Positions 19,908 through 27,177 of a stretch of DNA of 64,000 nt are shown here, in pieces; the stretch's first letter is position 1, and the number at the start of each line of letters is the position of its first letter. The stretch spans positions 32,001 to 96,000 of the forward strand of contig JBJFGS010000025.1 of NCBI GenBank assembly GCA_051892935.1, given 5' to 3'. The position numbers and the translations under genes were made by a program. The DNA comes from Candidatus Coprovivens sp. GTDB taxonomy: Bacteria; Bacillota_I; Bacilli_A; RF39; UBA660. Below the pieces are notes generated by a model. The model did not search any database. It was given only the letters and a program-made list of their open reading frames with translations, and was not told the DNA's origin.

Positions 19908-20810
19908 ATGAGCAACTTAGACAATAATATAAAAGAATTTCTAAAATATCTGTCTAATGAAAAAAGATATCCTAACACAACTATCGAAAGTTACAAAAGA
20001 GATTTAGATAATTATTATAGTTATATTACTTTAAAAAAAATAAACTACAAAGAAATAAATAAAGACGAAATAAGAGATTACTTAAAATACTTAGATGATT
20101 TAAAGTATTCAAAGACAACTATTTCAAGAATACTAAGTACATTAAGACATTTCTATTCATATCTTGTAATACATAAAAAAATAGAAACAAATAACTTTAA
20201 ATTAATAAGAAATCCTAAGAAAGAAAAAAAATTACCAAACTTCTTACAAGGAGATGAACTAGAAAAAATATTTGATACCATAAATTTAGATACACCATTA
20301 GGTATAAGAAATCGTTTAATAATAGAATTACTATATGCATCAGGTATCAGAGTATCAGAACTAACCAATCTAAAATTACAAGATATAGACTTAAATAATA
20401 AAGAAATAAGAATAGTTGGTAAAGGTAATAAAGAAAGAATAGTATATTTTGGAGAATATGCCCAAAAATATTTAAAAATGTACCTAGAAGAATCAAGAAA
20501 CATCTTACTAAACAATAAACAGTCATCAAATCTTCTAATTAATCATTCTGGAGAACCCCTAACTACTAGAGGAGTAGAAATGATAATAGAAAACATTGTT
20601 AAAGAAGCATCTATCAAACACAATATCTCTCCTCATTCCCTAAGACACACATTTGCAACAGATCTTTTAAATAACGGAGCAGACTTAAAAAGTGTTCAAG
20701 AACTTCTTGGTCACTCATCATTATCTACTACTCAAATATATACACATATTACAAACGAAAGATTAAGAAGCGTTTATTTGCAAACTTTTCCAAGGCAAAA
20801 AGAAAAATAA
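19908..20810 (+). CDS. xerC: Tyrosine recombinase XerC/CodV
   Basis: GIRVSEL, GKGNKER, HSLRHTFATDLL, LLGH, TQIYTH; chromosomal context with dif in the window. Confidence 0.85.
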   Translation: MSNLDNNIKEFLKYLSNEKRYPNTTIESYKRDLDNYYSYITLKKINYKEINKDEIRDYLKYLDDLKYSKTTISRILSTLRHFYSYLVIHKKIETNNFKLIRNPKKEKKLPNFLQGDELEKIFDTINLDTPLGIRNRLIIELLYASGIRVSELTNLKLQDIDLNNKEIRIVGKGNKERIVYFGEYAQKYLKMYLEESRNILLNNKQSSNLLINHSGEPLTTRGVEMIIENIVKEASIKHNISPHSLRHTFATDLLNNGADLKSVQELLGHSSLSTTQIYTHITNERLRSVYLQTFPRQKEK

Positions 20811-20846: not shown

Positions 20847-21668
20847 ATGGAAACAAAGAATGGAAAGTTTAAAATAATATTAGGAATAATATTAGGTATA
20901 GTTATTGGTGTAGCAATAACTTATATTTTAGTTCATAATAACGACTCAAAAAACGAAAAAAATGAGTTACCACTAACACTTCAAGAATATAAAAAATCTC
21001 AAGAATACAAAGAAAATATTATAATTGAAGCATTTAAAGATTATTACACATCAAAAGGATTTGTAATGATTAGCGATGTCAAATCTTGGGATATAACAAT
21101 CAAAGAAGAAAAAGAAGAATATGTTATATTAGAAAATAAATATACTTGTAATGATAATAGCGGAAGTTGTATTTATGTACCCCAAGAAATAGAAAAAGAT
21201 GGTAATTACATTTTTACAATAAGAGCAAATGGCAAATACGAAAATTATAAATACAATATAACTAGTATCACATCAACAGATACTACTTCTTCAGCAACAA
21301 ATCCTGAAGAGCAAACACCAGCAGAATCAGTTCCTAATCCAGTAAACACTGAATTAGATTGTGAAACATACTCAAAATTACTTCAAGAATATTTAACAAA
21401 TAAAGGATTAATTTTCGTACCAAACCTTTCATCATTCAAAGCAGAATCATTTGAATATAAAGGATACTACCCAGAAAAGCCAGATGAAAAATTATATGAA
21501 GTAAAAATATCTTATTCTTGTTTAGACGGTAATTCTGATTGTGTTTACCAACCTCAAAGTGAAGACGATATTAATGGAATATATAATTTTTCAATGATAA
21601 TAACTATTACTGATGGAAAAATCGTTAATATCAACGGAAATATATTAAGTCAAGAATTAGTTAAATAA
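20847..21668 (+). CDS. Membrane-anchored extracellular protein with two tandem Cys-pair repeats
   Basis: N-terminal TM; YTCNDNSGSCIYVPQ and YSCLDGNSDCVYQPQ. Confidence 0.75.
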   Translation: METKNGKFKIILGIILGIVIGVAITYILVHNNDSKNEKNELPLTLQEYKKSQEYKENIIIEAFKDYYTSKGFVMISDVKSWDITIKEEKEEYVILENKYTCNDNSGSCIYVPQEIEKDGNYIFTIRANGKYENYKYNITSITSTDTTSSATNPEEQTPAESVPNPVNTELDCETYSKLLQEYLTNKGLIFVPNLSSFKAESFEYKGYYPEKPDEKLYEVKISYSCLDGNSDCVYQPQSEDDINGIYNFSMIITITDGKIVNINGNILSQELVK

Positions 21669-21706
21669 AAAGTTTATTAACTATTCTCTCATTTTTAAAG
21701 AAAAAG

Positions 21707-21735
21707 TTGACAAAGAAAAATAAATATGCTATTTT
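21707..21735 (+). promoter_or_regulatory. Sigma-A promoter of the NTase-GNAT-ABC operon
   Basis: TTGACA, 17-bp spacer, TGc-TATTTT extended -10. Confidence 0.7.
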
Positions 21736-21742
21736 CTTATCA

Positions 21743-21833
21743 AGTGAGAGCACATAAGTTTATTAACGAGCTGTGCTGGGCGAAGAACCTACACGTATAT
21801 CGGAGTCACGAATGTTTTATTCGTGGCTTTTTT
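21743..21833 (+). ncRNA. Candidate cis-regulatory RNA (riboswitch/attenuator), copy 1, with terminator
   Basis: AGTGAG-[agcaca/tgtgct]-GGG..CCTACACG-TATATCGGAGTCAC followed by hairpin agtcacgaat/attcgtggct and a T run. Confidence 0.65.
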
Positions 21834-21878
21834 ATATCTTTAAAACACGAAGAAACAATAGAAAGAGAGGTGATACTT

Positions 21879-22007
21879 ATGATGTCAAAAAAAGACCTAT
21901 ACTTTAAAAAAACAAAAAAATTACAATTTATCGTACGATTTATTCCTCAGGCGGATATTATAACATCATTAAATATCACCCTCAAAGTAGGAATATCGTA
22001 CTCTTAG
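21879..22007 (+). CDS. Leader ORF (42 aa, MMSKKDLYFKK...), overlapping a long RNA hairpin
   Basis: gaggtga RBS before ATG 21879; stop codon abuts RNA motif copy 2. Confidence 0.55.
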   Translation: MMSKKDLYFKKTKKLQFIVRFIPQADIITSLNITLKVGISYS

Positions 22008-22091
22008 TGAGTATGTATCAAAGCTACATAGGGAACAATAATTCCTACACGATTTATATCGGAGTCACATCTTTATATGTGACTCTTTTTT
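22006..22091 (+). ncRNA. Candidate cis-regulatory RNA, copy 2, with terminator
   Basis: AGTGAG-[tatgta/tacata]-GGGAA..TTCCTACACG-att-TATATCGGAGTCAC followed by hairpin gagtcacat/atgtgactc and a T run. Confidence 0.65.
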
Positions 22092-22125
22092 GTTTCAAAA
22101 AATAAAAAAGAAAGGAAGTGCAAAA

Positions 22126-22263
22126 ATGAACTACGCAAAAGAAGATTTAAAATACTACAAAAAACAATTATACAGATACTTAAAAAAATACTATCAAGAT
22201 TATTTAGATTATTTGAAAGATTATTATGAATATAATTTAAATCTAAAATTAAAACGAAAATAA
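22126..22263 (+). CDS. Tyr-rich microprotein (45 aa, 12 Tyr): MNYAKEDLKYYKKQLYRYLKKYYQDYLDYLKDYYEYNLNLKLKRK
   Basis: aaagga RBS; sits between terminator 2 and the NTase gene; below the ORF-track cutoff. Confidence 0.65.
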   Translation: MNYAKEDLKYYKKQLYRYLKKYYQDYLDYLKDYYEYNLNLKLKRK

Positions 22264-22292
22264 AAATAATAAAGAAAAAGGAGGTAAACTAT

Positions 22293-23024
22293 ATGTGGAA
22301 ATTAGCATTAAACAATTTTATTAAGCCGTATAGAGAAGATAAAGAAGTAGAAGCTATTCTTTTAGTAGGTAGTTATGCAGTTGGTAATCAAAATGAATAT
22401 AGTGACATAGATGTATACATAGTATTAAACGATAATGCTAACTATCGCAAACGTGGTAACAAACTAGTAAATAATTACCTAATAGAATATTTTATCAATC
22501 CAATCCATAAAATAAAAGATTATATAAAAGAAGATAAACGAGGTCATGGTGGTAGTATGGCAAACATGTTATTAAATGGTCAAGTTCTATTAGATAAACA
22601 TGGAATAATAGAAAAACTAAAAGAAGAAGCACTAAAAGCAAAAGAAATACAACTAGAAAAAGATATTATGAAATACTATGCATGTTGGCATGCTTATGAT
22701 GAATACGAAGCAGCTATGTATCATAGCGAACTACAATACTATCTATGTTTAAAATACTTAGTAGATTGTTATCTATTTAATAATGGTTACGCAATGTTAC
22801 CAGAACAAAAAATAGAGCGTTTCTTTAAAGATCAAGAATATAGAGAAAAATACAATATCGGGAAATTCCCAAACAATAAATTTAATAACCTAGTAATTAA
22901 TTGTTTTGATAAACCATGTAAAAAGAATTTAAAAGTCTTATACGAATTTGTAATAGAAGACGGTAAATTCGATATAAATAATTTTGAATTAAAAAATAAA
23001 ATAGAACAAAAAAAGGAAGATTAA
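22293..23024 (+). CDS. Pol-beta-family nucleotidyltransferase with a helical C-domain (KNTase/MNT-like)
   Basis: LVGSYAVG.....SDIDVY motif. Confidence 0.85.
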   Translation: MWKLALNNFIKPYREDKEVEAILLVGSYAVGNQNEYSDIDVYIVLNDNANYRKRGNKLVNNYLIEYFINPIHKIKDYIKEDKRGHGGSMANMLLNGQVLLDKHGIIEKLKEEALKAKEIQLEKDIMKYYACWHAYDEYEAAMYHSELQYYLCLKYLVDCYLFNNGYAMLPEQKIERFFKDQEYREKYNIGKFPNNKFNNLVINCFDKPCKKNLKVLYEFVIEDGKFDINNFELKNKIEQKKED

Positions 23025-23025
23025 A

Positions 23026-23604
23026 ATGGAAAAATTAAGACACGTCGAACCCTCTATCGAATTAAAAGAACAAGGTATAGACTACATAAACGAACATTTA
23101 TTATGTAACTCCGAAATTAATGGCTCCGGAAGTTTACACAAATACTTAGATAACTACGAAGAATGGCTAATTAAGTTAGAAAGAGATCGAAATTGTATTC
23201 CTAACGAAGAACGAGTTCCAGCTGAAACTTACTACCTTGTAAACGAAAGCAATAGAATTATAGGAATGATAAATATACGTCTAGTACTTAATGAAAGACT
23301 AAGAAAATGTGGTGGCCATATTGGCTATGGAATAAGACCAAGCGAAAGACAAAAAGGCTACAATAAAATAAATCTTTATTTAGGACTATTACGTTGTCAA
23401 GAACTTGGTATTGAAGAAGTCATCTTAGATTGTGATGCTATTAATCTAGGATCATCTCGTACAATGGAAGCCCTAGGTGGAATAAGAATAGATGAATACT
23501 ATAGTGAAGAAGAACAATCATTAATATGGAGATACCAAATAAATGTCAATAACGCAATAAATAGCTATAAAGAAATATATGAACCTAAAATATTAAGAAA
23601 ATAA
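23026..23604 (+). CDS. GNAT acetyltransferase
   Basis: GGHIGYGIRPSERQKGY, N.GS..TME.LGG. Confidence 0.9.
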   Translation: MEKLRHVEPSIELKEQGIDYINEHLLCNSEINGSGSLHKYLDNYEEWLIKLERDRNCIPNEERVPAETYYLVNESNRIIGMINIRLVLNERLRKCGGHIGYGIRPSERQKGYNKINLYLGLLRCQELGIEEVILDCDAINLGSSRTMEALGGIRIDEYYSEEEQSLIWRYQINVNNAINSYKEIYEPKILRK

Positions 23605-23623
23605 AAAGTAAGGAGGTGACAAC

Positions 23624-24082
23624 ATGGTCATTCAAAAAGCAACCAAAGAAGATTTCCTTGGTATACACAAAATATTTCAGGAAGTGCACGATCACCACCT
23701 AAATGGTACTATAAATACATTTAAAGATATTGATCCATTTACAAAAGAAGAATTACTAGAATCCTTAAAAGATAAAAATACATTTATTTTAATAGCTAAA
23801 GAAAAAGAAATAGAAGGTTTCATTCTAGCAACAATAATAGAAAAAGAAGGAAGACATACTAAATTAAAAAAAACACTACATATAAATACAATAGGTACCA
23901 AAAAAGATTCACAAAACAAAGGAATAGGGACATTACTAATAAATGAAATAAAAAAGATTGCTAAAGAAAATAAATGTGATAACATTAATTTAAGTGTATG
24001 GGCATTTAATGATAATGCCATTAAATTTTACAAACACATAGGATTTAACAATAAAATAATAAATATGGAAATAACATTGTAG
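23624..24082 (+). CDS. GNAT acetyltransferase
   Basis: QNKGIGTLL, LSVWAFNDNAIKFYKHIGF. Confidence 0.9.
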   Translation: MVIQKATKEDFLGIHKIFQEVHDHHLNGTINTFKDIDPFTKEELLESLKDKNTFILIAKEKEIEGFILATIIEKEGRHTKLKKTLHINTIGTKKDSQNKGIGTLLINEIKKIAKENKCDNINLSVWAFNDNAIKFYKHIGFNNKIINMEITL

Positions 24083-24104
24083 AAAAAATAAAAGGAGGCT
24101 GAAT

Positions 24105-25085
24105 ATGAACGCAATAGAAGTAAAAGGCCTATCCAAAAAATTCAGAGTAAAACAAAAAGAAAAAGGTCTAATGGGAAGCTTAAAATCAATATTTAAACCA
24201 AAATATAAAGAAAAACTCGCCGTAAATAAAATAACCTTTACTATTGAAAAAGGAGAGATACTAGCATTCATTGGTCCCAATGGAGCCGGTAAATCAACTA
24301 CTATAAAAATGTTAACTGGTATCTTATTTCCTACAAAAGGAGAAATATCAGTAATGGGAATAAATCCTCAAAAAAATCGAAAAGAATTATCTTATAAAAT
24401 AGGTACAGTATTCGGTCAAAAAGAACAACTATGGATCCATTTAACACCATACGATAACTTCAAATTCTTTGGTGCCATCTACGACATCCCTGAATCAGTA
24501 GTAGAAAAACGTATTGAAGAGTATAAAACTATCTTCGAATTAGATGAATTTATAAATACCCCAGTAAGAGGATTATCCTTAGGTCAAAGAATGATCTGTG
24601 AAATAGTTGCATCTTTAATTCACGAACCAGAAATTCTTTTCTTAGATGAACCAACCATCGGTTTAGACCCAGTAGTTAAAGAAAAGATAAGAGTATTCAT
24701 CAAAAGATTAAATAAAGAAAAGAAAACTACTATCTTCCTAACTAGTCATGATGTAGGAGACATCGAAAAATTATGTAAAAGAGTTATCATCGTAAACGAT
24801 GGTACAATAGTATTAGATGATTCAATGGAAAACTTAAAATATCACTACTTAAACAAGAAAATTGTTGAAGCAAAAATGAATACTAAAATCAATTTAGATG
24901 ATGTAGAAGGAATTACTATCTTAAAAGACAAAGACTATAACTTAAAATTAGAAGTAGACTTAACTAAAAAAACTATCAGTGATGCTATAAAACTATTAGA
25001 TCCAGATAAAATAATTGACATCAATATTTCAAATACACCATTAGAAACAATTATAAGTTCTATCTATAAAGGAAATAAAAAATGA
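24105..25085 (+). CDS. ABC transporter ATP-binding protein (DrrA-like exporter)
   Basis: GPNGAGKST, LSLGQRM, LDEPTIGLD, TSH. Confidence 0.92.
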   Translation: MNAIEVKGLSKKFRVKQKEKGLMGSLKSIFKPKYKEKLAVNKITFTIEKGEILAFIGPNGAGKSTTIKMLTGILFPTKGEISVMGINPQKNRKELSYKIGTVFGQKEQLWIHLTPYDNFKFFGAIYDIPESVVEKRIEEYKTIFELDEFINTPVRGLSLGQRMICEIVASLIHEPEILFLDEPTIGLDPVVKEKIRVFIKRLNKEKKTTIFLTSHDVGDIEKLCKRVIIVNDGTIVLDDSMENLKYHYLNKKIVEAKMNTKINLDDVEGITILKDKDYNLKLEVDLTKKTISDAIKLLDPDKIIDINISNTPLETIISSIYKGNKK

Positions 25086-25873
25086 AAAAATACTTATATA
25101 TAATGAAAACTACATTCAAAGACACCTTACAATATTCATCAAGCTTAATATTTAGGTTTATCGGCTTTGCTGTAGTTATGTCAGTATTAATTAGTTTATG
25201 GAACTTCTTATATAGTGAACCAGGTAGTACCATTAACGGCTATACATTTAACCAAATGATTTGGTACTTATTATTAGCCGAAATAATCACCTTCGGTAGC
25301 GGTAGTAAAGTAGCTACTAATGAAATCAGAAATACTATTAAAAGCGGAAACATTGCTTACCAAGTAACAAAACCATATAACTATATCAGTTTTACTATCT
25401 GTAAATTCTTAGCAGATACTATAATAAGATTCTTCTTATTCTTAATAGTTGCTGTTATATTAGGTTTAATCTTTGCAGGTCCAATAGAAAACTTTAACTT
25501 AATCTCGTTAATACCAGCTACTACAGTATTCTTACTAGCTATTCTTATAACAGGTATGATAAAGATATTAGTCAGCTTATCTGCCTTCTGGGTAGAAGAC
25601 TCTAATCCATTCCAAATGGTATATAGTAAGATAGTTTTAATATTTGGCGTATTATTCCCATTAGAAATGTTTCCAAAAATCATTCAAACTATTATAAAAT
25701 TCACTCCAGTATATGGAGTAAGCTATGGACCTGCTAAACTGATTATTAATTTCAACTCTAGTATTTTAACAAACGTATTATTATCTCAAGTAATTACAAT
25801 TATAGTGGTAACAATATTATTAAAAATCGTATACGAAAGAGGGGTGAAGAAATTAAATGTTAACGGCGGTTAA
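25082..25873 (+). CDS. ABC-2 family permease
   Basis: Six TMs; IKSGNIAY...KP motif. Confidence 0.85.
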   Translation: MKKYLYIMKTTFKDTLQYSSSLIFRFIGFAVVMSVLISLWNFLYSEPGSTINGYTFNQMIWYLLLAEIITFGSGSKVATNEIRNTIKSGNIAYQVTKPYNYISFTICKFLADTIIRFFLFLIVAVILGLIFAGPIENFNLISLIPATTVFLLAILITGMIKILVSLSAFWVEDSNPFQMVYSKIVLIFGVLFPLEMFPKIIQTIIKFTPVYGVSYGPAKLIINFNSSILTNVLLSQVITIIVVTILLKIVYERGVKKLNVNGG

Positions 25874-26651
25874 AGGAAACTTAAAAATAATGTTTCTTAG
25901 TATCAAGTACAACTTAATGAAATGTATGGAAAACAACGTAGCATTTGCTACCTCCATAATAATGATGATTTTCAATAATGCTACATTCATTATCCAGTGG
26001 TTAACTATATTTGCAATAAAAGAATCAATAGGTGGATATACTTTGAATAACGTCATGTTATTCTGGGCTATCTCTAGTGGAGCTTATGGCCTAGCACATA
26101 TCTTCTTTAATGGCGTAAACAAACTACCAGAATATATCGAAGAAGGTAAATTAGATGCCTTCCTAACAGTACCTAAAAATCCATTATGTTATGTAGCAAC
26201 ATCCAGTACTGAGCCATCAGCTTGGGGAGATTTAATATATGGCTACATCGCTTTAATAATATTTAACTTTAGTATTAAAAACATTTTATTATATACATTG
26301 TTAATTATATCAGGAGCATTGATTTATGCTAGTACAATCTGTATCTTCAATACATTAACATTCGTATTCTATAAATCTAGTGATTTCACAGAAGTTATAA
26401 AATCAGCATTATTAAATTCATCTTTATATCCAGATGTAATATTTGAAAGAGCAGTTAAAATTATCTTCTTCACCTTAGTACCTAGTGGATTTGCTTGTTG
26501 GCTACCAGTACATTTAATTATGAGTTTTAATCCAATTAATTTATTAATATTAATCGTAACTACCATTATCTACGTATCATTAGCATTCATCTTATTCCAT
26601 AAAGGATTAAAACACTATTCTTCAAGTAACTTGATGGGAGCAAGAAGTTAA
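25857..26651 (+). CDS. ABC-2 family permease
   Basis: IEEGKLDAFLTVP; C-terminal GLKHYSSS. Confidence 0.85.
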   Translation: MLTAVKGNLKIMFLSIKYNLMKCMENNVAFATSIIMMIFNNATFIIQWLTIFAIKESIGGYTLNNVMLFWAISSGAYGLAHIFFNGVNKLPEYIEEGKLDAFLTVPKNPLCYVATSSTEPSAWGDLIYGYIALIIFNFSIKNILLYTLLIISGALIYASTICIFNTLTFVFYKSSDFTEVIKSALLNSSLYPDVIFERAVKIIFFTLVPSGFACWLPVHLIMSFNPINLLILIVTTIIYVSLAFILFHKGLKHYSSSNLMGARS

Positions 26652-26676
26652 TATATATAAGAAAAGAGGGCAAAAT

Positions 26677-27177
26677 ATGATATTTTTAAAAAAAGCTAAT
26701 CTCGAAGATATCGAAGAAGAATACAATTTTCTAAGTAAAATGCCTAGTATAAACGGTTTTGAAAACGAATATGAAAACCTTCCTAGAGAAAATTTTGAAC
26801 AACATATCAAAGCATTAATTGATCACTCAGAAGGAAAAAAACTAAAAGAAGGATACGTACCAGATACATACTTTTTCCTATGGGATGATAATAAAATAGT
26901 TGGAGTATTCAAACTAAGACATTACTTAAATGATTGGTTAAGAAAAAATGCAGGACACCTAGGTTACGGAATATTACCAGAAGAAAATGGTAAAGGTTAT
27001 GCGACTAAAGGTCTAGCTCTTATGAAAAAAGAAGCAGCTAAGATAATAAAAGAAAACGAAATTTATTTATCTGTTCATAAAGACAACAAAGCATCATTAA
27101 AAGTTCAACAAAAAAATGGTGCTTACATAGTAAAAGAAACTGAAAATGAATACTTAACAAGAATAAAAATAAGATAA
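26677..27177 (+). CDS. GNAT acetyltransferase
   Basis: GHLGYGI.PEENGKGYAT, N.ASLKV..KNG. Confidence 0.9.
   Translation: MIFLKKANLEDIEEEYNFLSKMPSINGFENEYENLPRENFEQHIKALIDHSEGKKLKEGYVPDTYFFLWDDNKIVGVFKLRHYLNDWLRKNAGHLGYGILPEENGKGYATKGLALMKKEAAKIIKENEIYLSVHKDNKASLKVQQKNGAYIVKETENEYLTRIKIR

Follow-up and report, generated by a model that had tools for sequence, protein, structure and literature searches.

Among the regulatory leader RNAs of bacteria, the SAM-I, NiCo (czcD) and Mn2+ (yybP) riboswitches are built on a four-helix junction, and their first helix, P1, is contested by the expression platform. Complete riboswitches placed in series are expected to sharpen the response, and the tandem thiamine pyrophosphate (TPP) riboswitches of Bacillus anthracis, studied by Welz and Breaker in 2007, are reportedly complete units of this kind. 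According to PMC9788692, the guanidine-IV (mepA) riboswitch consists, like its variant Gd4v, of two hairpins that a pseudoknot connects; these RNAs work as transcriptional ON switches by competition between aptamer and terminator, are associated with GNAT and exporter genes and are common in gut metagenomes. PMC5737381 links multistem junctions with many nucleotides conserved across a wide phylogeny to sophisticated RNA functions. In the present study, we analysed a stretch of 64,000 nucleotides (nt) from Candidatus Coprovivens sp. (GenBank assembly GCA_051892935.1, contig JBJFGS010000025.1, positions 32,001 to 96,000; hereafter the window), in which two copies of a small structured RNA motif, each fused to an intrinsic terminator, stand behind one promoter and in front of an operon. 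The copies, the promoter and the terminators had been reported in a first-pass annotation, and on re-reading of the sequence all were present letter for letter. We consider it probable, from the comparative evidence given below, that both copies are members of a hitherto uncatalogued cis-acting leader RNA class, which is most likely a riboswitch. The new part is the aptamer class; the terminator/antiterminator logic and the serial tandem layout are already familiar.

The window resembles the reported TPP tandem of B. anthracis in having two aptamer-terminator units of the same class, one promoter and one operon, with both units to be passed. It differs from it in the class of the aptamer, in the small open reading frame (ORF) that lies between the units in this genus, and in the units of other genera, which are 45-98 nt apart. 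With the SAM-I, NiCo and Mn2+ riboswitches the motif shares a four-way junction, where the pocket is expected, and a closing P1 that competes with the platform, but it is much smaller (63-86 nt), has another consensus and no Rfam match, and its gene context is not one of SAM or metals. Aptamer-terminator competition and the presence of GNAT N-acetyltransferase and exporter genes are shared with guanidine-IV and Gd4v (PMC9788692). From these, as they are described there, the motif is set apart through its four-stem junction, its other conserved nucleotides and the lack of an Rfam match, and it was not counted as a member; its exporters are of the ABC-2 type (PF06182) and theirs are described as MATE or SugE. 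The yjdF azaaromatic riboswitch is likewise an orphan-type leader RNA of Firmicutes and responds to toxic xenobiotic-like compounds (PMC4793209). The yjdF RNA, however, is nearly confined to the yjdF gene, unlike the present motif, behind which many non-homologous genes are found, and the Rfam scan of 21600-22350 gave no match to RF01764.

It is very improbable, in our judgement, that the motif is a diverged form of a known riboswitch (of the guanidine, yjdF or NiCo type) or a published motif missing from the searched libraries. The GNAT and exporter context does resemble that of guanidine-IV and Gd4v as given in PMC9788692, and the motif is present in cultured Clostridia that earlier screens covered. 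Against this, the two hairpins and pseudoknot described there are unlike a four-stem junction, and Rfam 15 held no relevant match even at E up to 10. In that library (4227 models) the whole window had no match at gathering score, and the permissive search of 21600-22350 returned 13 matches (E 0.62-9.8), all to small nucleolar RNA, microRNA and small RNA models far below their thresholds. The five clostridial motif loci that were scanned gave a single match, a T-box unrelated to the motif, so that the failure of the first-pass annotation to place the motif in a known class is borne out by these scans. In the Clostridium tagluense record, 2 kb separate that T-box leader (L139:4501-4729, plus strand, 107 bits) from the motif downstream of it. 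Furthermore, a description of the motif was not found in the searchable literature, including the consulted parts of PMC9788692, PMC11109978, PMC8632094, PMC5737381 and PMC2965389, a search which did not cover the supplementary motif lists of the discovery screens. Text searches of discovery papers gave no motif of this architecture linked to acetyltransferase or ABC exporter genes, and a literature search on the motif's own strings returned mostly Illumina adapter text.

The fold was examined on model-based alignments, because MAFFT misaligned P2 and P3, whose loops differ in length, and the MAFFT alignments were dropped. Pairs were counted on an alignment (A7) of 76 sequences found without a fixed pattern. 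Standard pairing was found in 97.0% of cells, against 81.0% in shuffles and 28-50% in slid registers, in alignments which were fitted to the model structure, so that the paired counts are inflated, and in which many rows are close kin. Both sides changed in 14 of 18 pairs (P2, 6/6; P3, 3/4; P4, 4/4; P1, 1/4), and RNAalifold gave the same four helices on A7. The compensatory stem changes that had been noticed between the two copies of the window are seen again among the relatives. Together with the position of the promoter, the pair counts and the RNAalifold structure agree with what is expected of the aptamer of a transcription-termination riboswitch.

P2 reads AGCACA, UAUGUA or GAGAUA in different copies with its pairing kept. 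Among 176 P2 loops, 126 begin with UAA, 124 finish with GAGC and 173 finish with AGC; the internal loop may resemble a 'UAA/GAN' motif, a term for which the literature search returned no paper. Within this loop a short variable cap stem, P2b, has its outer three positions all paired in 98 of 131 sequences (11 expected), and copy 2 of the window has a plain terminal loop, UCAAAGC, without P2b. The base of P3 is GGG/CCU, that of P4 is CG/CG, and P1 is GUGA/UCAC. P4 lies between ACACG and CGGAG, as CG-UAUAU-CG in copy 1 and CGAU-UUAU-AUCG in copy 2, and in relatives it varies as CGAU/AUCG, CGAA/UUCG, CGCA/UGCG, CGU/ACG and CA.../...UG, being longer in Clostridia. The junction and the P2 loop together have about 25 near-invariant nucleotides. 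In addition, the conserved 3' block falls in different reading frames in the two copies, since these are 67 and 63 nt long, and conservation at the RNA level, as first proposed, is upheld.

The junction itself had at first been drawn as a three-way junction closed by GUG/CAC, with GUGA/UCAC as an alternative antiterminator. The GUG/CAC closure (CAC of ACACG) shows no pair that changes on both sides and is mispaired in one sequence, L074; it was rejected, although the evidence for the choice is thin. In the same sequence the GUGA/UCAC closure shows a compensatory change from U-A to C-G, and from this difference the four-stem drawing follows. It fits better and includes the P4 hairpin, which had been overlooked, and GUGA/UCAC most likely forms P1, the helix by which the aptamer itself is closed. 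The alignments thus support a four-stem junction in which J1/2 is G, J3/4 is ACA and J4/1 is GAG, with P1 on thin evidence. P1 is nearly invariant in the 76 sequences (one pair is 74 U-A, 1 C-G and 1 U-G, and the other three are fixed), and covariation alone is therefore insufficient to establish it. The two closures could also be alternative states.

The relation of the aptamer to the terminator was consistent over the class. Among 168 distinct copies with flanking sequence, a hairpin with a U tract follows downstream in 164, and in 162 a terminator of -8 kcal/mol or stabler has a 5' arm that shares 6-22 nt with the 3' end of the aptamer. The shared stretch is the 3' strand of P1 and often also that of P4, so that in these copies and in the window the terminator takes nucleotides from an aptamer helix; the fusion of each copy to a terminator, first noted for the window, is confirmed there by the terminator scan. 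In the window, the 5' arms of both terminators start within the conserved GGAGTCAC. The scan gave a hairpin at 21802-21830 with 13 pairs and a loop of 3, followed by TTTATATCTT, and one at 22061-22086 with 10 pairs and a loop of 6, followed by TTTTTGTTTC; 4 terminator-like sites were counted on both strands of 21000-23200, where 0.3 were expected. A search of the 1.81-Mb genome for the common 3' block with a short gap gave two forward-strand matches, which are the two copies, and none on the reverse strand or for the reversed control. Full-length RNAs of the window fold into the terminators (-24.8 kcal/mol for copy 1 and -21.5 kcal/mol for copy 2), and RNAs that stop where the aptamer ends take up P1-P4, which for copy 2 is the minimum-energy structure. 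Because of this difference between full-length and truncated RNAs, termination should be the default state, and a stabilised aptamer should lead to read-through.

A promoter with at least 10 of 12 matches and a -10 element ending 5-10 nt upstream was found before 106 of 139 single or first copies; by the same rule it was found before 1 of 39 downstream copies and in 1 of 178 shuffled upstream regions. The scan found no promoter belonging to copy 2 of the window. From these counts it follows that the RNA starts at the 5' end of the transcript and that second copies rely on the read-through of the first, in agreement with the double gate proposed in the first-pass annotation. The window thus holds two complete aptamer-terminator units behind one promoter. 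Two or more copies were present in 41 of 142 loci; in 13 pairs the spacing is 45-98 nt, which is taken up by the terminator and a little spacer sequence; in 18 pairs, from the window's genus and from two records, it is 178-224 nt; and in 10 pairs a gene lies between the copies. Since multi-copy loci are this frequent and are of several spacing types, the serial arrangement is a recurrent property of the class and not an accident of the window genome. Single copies in other genera are followed directly by a terminator and a gene. At L063:1501-1574 (plus strand) the motif has no terminator, and the Shine-Dalgarno (SD) sequence of the gene lies within about 20 nt of the aptamer, which suggests translational rather than transcriptional control in that genome.

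In the window's genus, all 16 loci carry between the copies a strong SD sequence with a small ORF, whose length is 40-76 residues overall and 40-59 in 15 loci and which stops at or within the 5' strand of copy 2; in the window its stop codon TAG overlaps the first two bases of that copy. A well-placed SD and an ORF reaching copy 2, together with controlled genes that resemble resistance genes, are what ribosome-mediated attenuation would have, in which a leader peptide senses translation stress (for example, a ribosome-targeting antibiotic) and picks between terminator and antiterminator. We regard this explanation as quite improbable. The aptamer stands at the 5' end of the transcript without an SD or a conserved ORF of its own, its stems vary with pairing kept, and the changes of P2 are not explicable by conservation of a peptide. 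The inter-copy ORF belongs to one genus; the 13 pairs that are 45-98 nt apart leave too little space for such an ORF, and behind the single copies of other genera the terminator and the gene follow directly. Leader-peptide control is therefore not the explanation of the class as a whole. Just before copy 2, the CGTACTCTT element is conserved as nucleotides in reading frames that differ among genomes, which speaks against a peptide, and for this reason CGTACTCTT may be an RNA element.

Homologues were searched with covariance models, a check that had been proposed for the motif, and they proved numerous, ahead of acetyltransferase, nucleotidyltransferase and exporter genes. The first model (R1), made from copy 2 together with the orthologous sequence of a sister genome, matched 16 of the 27 genomes in the genus strongly, and R2, by which every position was scored, found the copy pair in all 16 loci fetched from the genus (32 matches), where the motif is always paired and the copies are 178-224 nt apart. 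Matches of R1 and R2 outside the genus were weak, AT-rich and probably spurious, both models resting on two near-identical sequences, and were rejected. R3, a model from 32 genus sequences (16 loci with 2 copies each), detected the motif at E of 1.3e-8 or below in 17 of the family's 150 other sampled genera, with two further weak matches, and also in 23 of 150 genomes in a sample of the order. No match at E of 0.01 or below was obtained in 137 genomes of 25 other families of the window's class, a sample that does not prove absence.

Furthermore, a degenerate pattern of the conserved blocks was scanned over 185,579 species genomes (one genome per species) and gave at least 120 stretches. Among the matches listed, R3 confirmed 78 of 80 loci at 40-76 bits; the two unconfirmed ones are records of Verrucomicrobiia and Ilumatobacteraceae. 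The listed matches include many uncultured Bacilli, 'Tenericutes' and Erysipelotrichaceae metagenome-assembled genomes (MAGs), and among Clostridia they include Alkaliphilus transvaalensis, Thermoanaerobacterium saccharolyticum, Tissierella simiarum, Clostridium tagluense, Clostridium sp. ZS2-4, Lutispora and Syntrophomonas. Binning errors may account for a few matches in other phyla (Muribaculaceae MAGs). Five of the pattern-scan genomes were searched whole and had 1-3 copies each, and an even sample of the class that holds C. tagluense had the motif in 8 of 149 further genomes. Overall, at least 176 distinct aptamer sequences were collected, from hosts ranging from uncultured Bacilli of 0.8 Mb to a Clostridium of 5 Mb. 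Two doubtful copies were also observed. On the second contig of a sister genome, L025:1485-1557 (minus strand) is a weak AT-rich match of 21-26 bits, which keeps the loop UCAAAGC and a paired P2 and P3 in other letters and is without GGAGTC; either decay of a former copy or chance could explain it. At L064:2804-2866 (plus strand), a 23-bit copy with an altered P1 (GUAA, and a deletion in UCAC) stands downstream of a gene of 199 residues, with a hairpin behind it, and may be a third unit in the course of degeneration.

For the genes under the motif, a theme of modification and export of a compound is plausible, though not sharply defined. Of 138 distinct first genes, 40 are GNAT (PF00583), 31 ABC_tran, 8 NTP_transf_2 and 3 MFS_1, and Peptidase_S51, Peptidase_S66, PNP_UDP_1 and class I methyltransferases occur twice each. 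When 331 operon proteins were clustered, one GNAT cluster was present in 50 loci, and an ABC ATPase with its two permeases in 36. Against solved structures, the commonest GNAT is nearest to an uncharacterised GNAT and then to diamine/spermidine N-acetyltransferases (E 8e-12 to 1e-9). The NCBIfam tally of first genes was swamped by ABC ATPase models and was uninformative on GNATs. The motif is followed first by GNAT and methyltransferase genes in cultured Clostridia, and in uncultured Bacilli many first genes have no Pfam family. The operon of the window, with its nucleotidyltransferase, three GNATs, DrrA-like ABC ATPase and two ABC2_membrane_6 permeases, is in keeping with the drug-modification/efflux type at first ascribed to it. 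A family of about 200 residues without a Pfam match, with the common motif LGFPxxExGTYLYKDxI, occurs in 12 loci (L169:662-1258, L064:2206-2802, L073:1651-2247 and others) and is the first gene in 11 of them. Its model (predicted local distance difference test score, pLDDT, 81.7) has the Spo0A DNA-binding domain as best PDB matches (template modelling score, TM, 0.70-0.76 by target; Foldseek E 0.07-0.26). On account of this predicted fold, the RNA may control transcription factors in some genomes.

Besides the inflated pair counts, several points weigh against the reading of the motif as a riboswitch. The aptamer-only folds of the window are no stabler than shuffles (z 0.35 and -1.03), and the pairing of P1 rests on one compensatory change. 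The pattern fixed GTGAG and GGAGTCAC, and the 97 matches from the pattern scan therefore cannot vary there. As the small ORF reaches copy 2, translation is possibly involved at that place and may modulate the second switch in the window's genus. Many downstream genes fit no known family, so the gene set names no ligand. Moreover, a structure that competes with a terminator fits equally well with a protein-dependent antiterminator, in which the junction is the site of a trans-acting RNA-binding protein (of the PyrR, LicT or ANTAR type) that senses the signal. Invariance of P1 and the junction is expected of a sequence-specific protein site, and some downstream genes are putative regulators, as with the 12-locus family just described. 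We nevertheless hold this alternative to be unlikely. The loops of the motif appear unlike the consensus of ANTAR and RAT sites, and no RNA-binding protein family was shared among the 138 first genes or the clustered operon proteins whose families were tallied. Because the hosts of the motif are so diverse (from 0.8-Mb Bacilli to 5-Mb Clostridium), such a protein would have to be common to every one of these genomes. In addition, a multistem junction conserved across classes is a signature tied to RNA-only functions in PMC5737381.

For the riboswitch reading, the arrangement of the leader suggests a transcriptional ON logic. At or next to the transcription start, the leader RNA would fold into a compact four-stem junction. 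If there is no signal, the stabler terminator would form and transcription would stop; if a signal, presumably a small molecule, stabilises the aptamer, the shared strand would be kept in P1 and P4 and the polymerase would read through. The window would then have two full switches in series under one promoter, and the operon would be made only when both are passed. Because the gene set has SpeG-like GNATs, nucleotidyltransferases and methyltransferases, and drug-type exporters, our guess for the ligand is a toxic amine-bearing compound (a polyamine, biogenic amine or cationic antibiotic, for example) that the cell would acetylate and export. A riboswitch that directly senses a polycationic amine and switches on acetylation and export is a tentative and rather unlikely proposal; spermidine, spermine, cadaverine or agmatine of the gut, or an aminoglycoside-type antibiotic, could be the compound. 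If this were true, it would be, to our knowledge, the first riboswitch for that compound class, and the serial pair would give a steep, threshold-like response in the organism of the window.

If the motif is a riboswitch, it is a further orphan class, one whose four-stem aptamer is unusually small and which spans two classes of Firmicutes and is common in uncultured gut Bacilli with small genomes. Its regulon would mark a detoxification pathway, and the ligand would assign functions to its genes, namely SpeG-like and other GNATs, nucleotidyltransferases, methyltransferases, DrrA-like ABC-2 exporters, major facilitator superfamily (MFS) pumps and many proteins of no known family. The class can be tested at the bench, since the motif is present in the cultured and non-pathogenic T. 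saccharolyticum, A. transvaalensis and C. tagluense, and its frequent tandems are a natural case for serial riboswitch logic. The features of the window locus are collected in Table 1.

Table 1. Coordinates of the leader elements and the operon in the window (position 1 is the first letter of the window; R3, covariance model from 32 genus sequences)
Feature	Position	Strand	Details
Sigma-70-type promoter	21707..21735	+	TTGACA-17 nt-TATTTT, TG before -10; 7 nt upstream of copy 1
Aptamer copy 1	21743..21809	+	67 nt; R3 69.1 bits, E 1.9e-15 (whole genome); AGTGAG; AGCACA/TGTGCT, loop end GAGC; GGG/CCT; ACACG; TATAT; CGGAGTCAC
Copy 1, P1	21744-21747 / 21806-21809		
Copy 1, P2	21749-21754 / 21772-21777		
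Copy 1, internal loop	21755-21757 and 21768-21771		UAA and GAGC, around P2b
Copy 1, P2b	21758-21767		
Copy 1, P3	21778-21780 / 21788-21790		
Copy 1, ACA	21791-21793		
Copy 1, P4	21794-21795 / 21801-21802		
Copy 1, GAG	21803-21805		
Intrinsic terminator 1	21802..21836	+	5' arm GGAGTCACGAAT includes J4/1 and P1 3' strand, then U tract
SD and small ORF between copies	21863..22007	+	42 codons; ATG 21879, stop TAG 22005-22007
Aptamer copy 2	22006..22068	+	63 nt; R3 71.3 bits, E 5.1e-16; AGTGAG; TATGTA/TACATA, loop end AGC; GGGAA/TTCCT; ACACG; ATTTATAT; CGGAGTCAC
Copy 2, P1	22007-22010 / 22065-22068		
Copy 2, P2	22012-22017 / 22025-22030		
Copy 2, P3	22031-22035 / 22042-22046		
Copy 2, ACA	22047-22049		
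Copy 2, P4	22050-22053 / 22058-22061		
Copy 2, GAG	22062-22064		
Intrinsic terminator 2	22061..22092	+	5' arm GGAGTCACAT includes J4/1 and P1 3' strand, then U tract
Small ORF 2	22126..22263	+	45 residues, Tyr/Lys-rich (KEDLKYYKKQLYRYLKKYY...), own SD; listed ORF 22090..22263; 3' of terminator 2
Controlled operon, whole	22293..27177	+	ORFs, Pfam, NCBIfam
NTP_transf_2 nucleotidyltransferase	22293-23024	+	Operon
GNAT	23026-23604	+	Operon
GNAT	23624-24082	+	Operon
DrrA-like ABC ATPase	24105-25085	+	Operon
ABC2_membrane_6 permease	25082-25873	+	Operon
ABC2_membrane_6 permease	25857-26651	+	Operon
GNAT	26677-27177	+	Operon

Neither the small ORF starting at 21879 nor small ORF 2 matched a Pfam family; 3 further genomes of the genus (L008, L017 and L019) have a conserved form of the small ORF 2 peptide. 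A listed ORF of 93 residues at 21726-22007 was rejected as an artefact; its frame passes through both aptamer 1 and its terminator and then joins the small ORF, whose true start is at 21879. The nucleotidyltransferase of the window, compared with solved structures, gave one chance-level match and nothing else. In a metatranscriptome run (X20), one contig of 155 nt covered 21789-21943 at 99% or more; it may come from DNA and its ends are uninformative, and it therefore speaks for neither transcription nor read-through. A joint in a DNA run (X1) that skips 21927-22251 has on one side just 21 letters at 85% likeness and is uninterpretable. Upstream of the motif lies the gene of an XerC/D-like tyrosine recombinase (19908-20810). 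In the window, an extra ORF of 273 residues without a Pfam family (20847-21668) stands between this gene and the promoter, and in the sister genome L004 the promoter of the motif is directly 3' of the recombinase gene.

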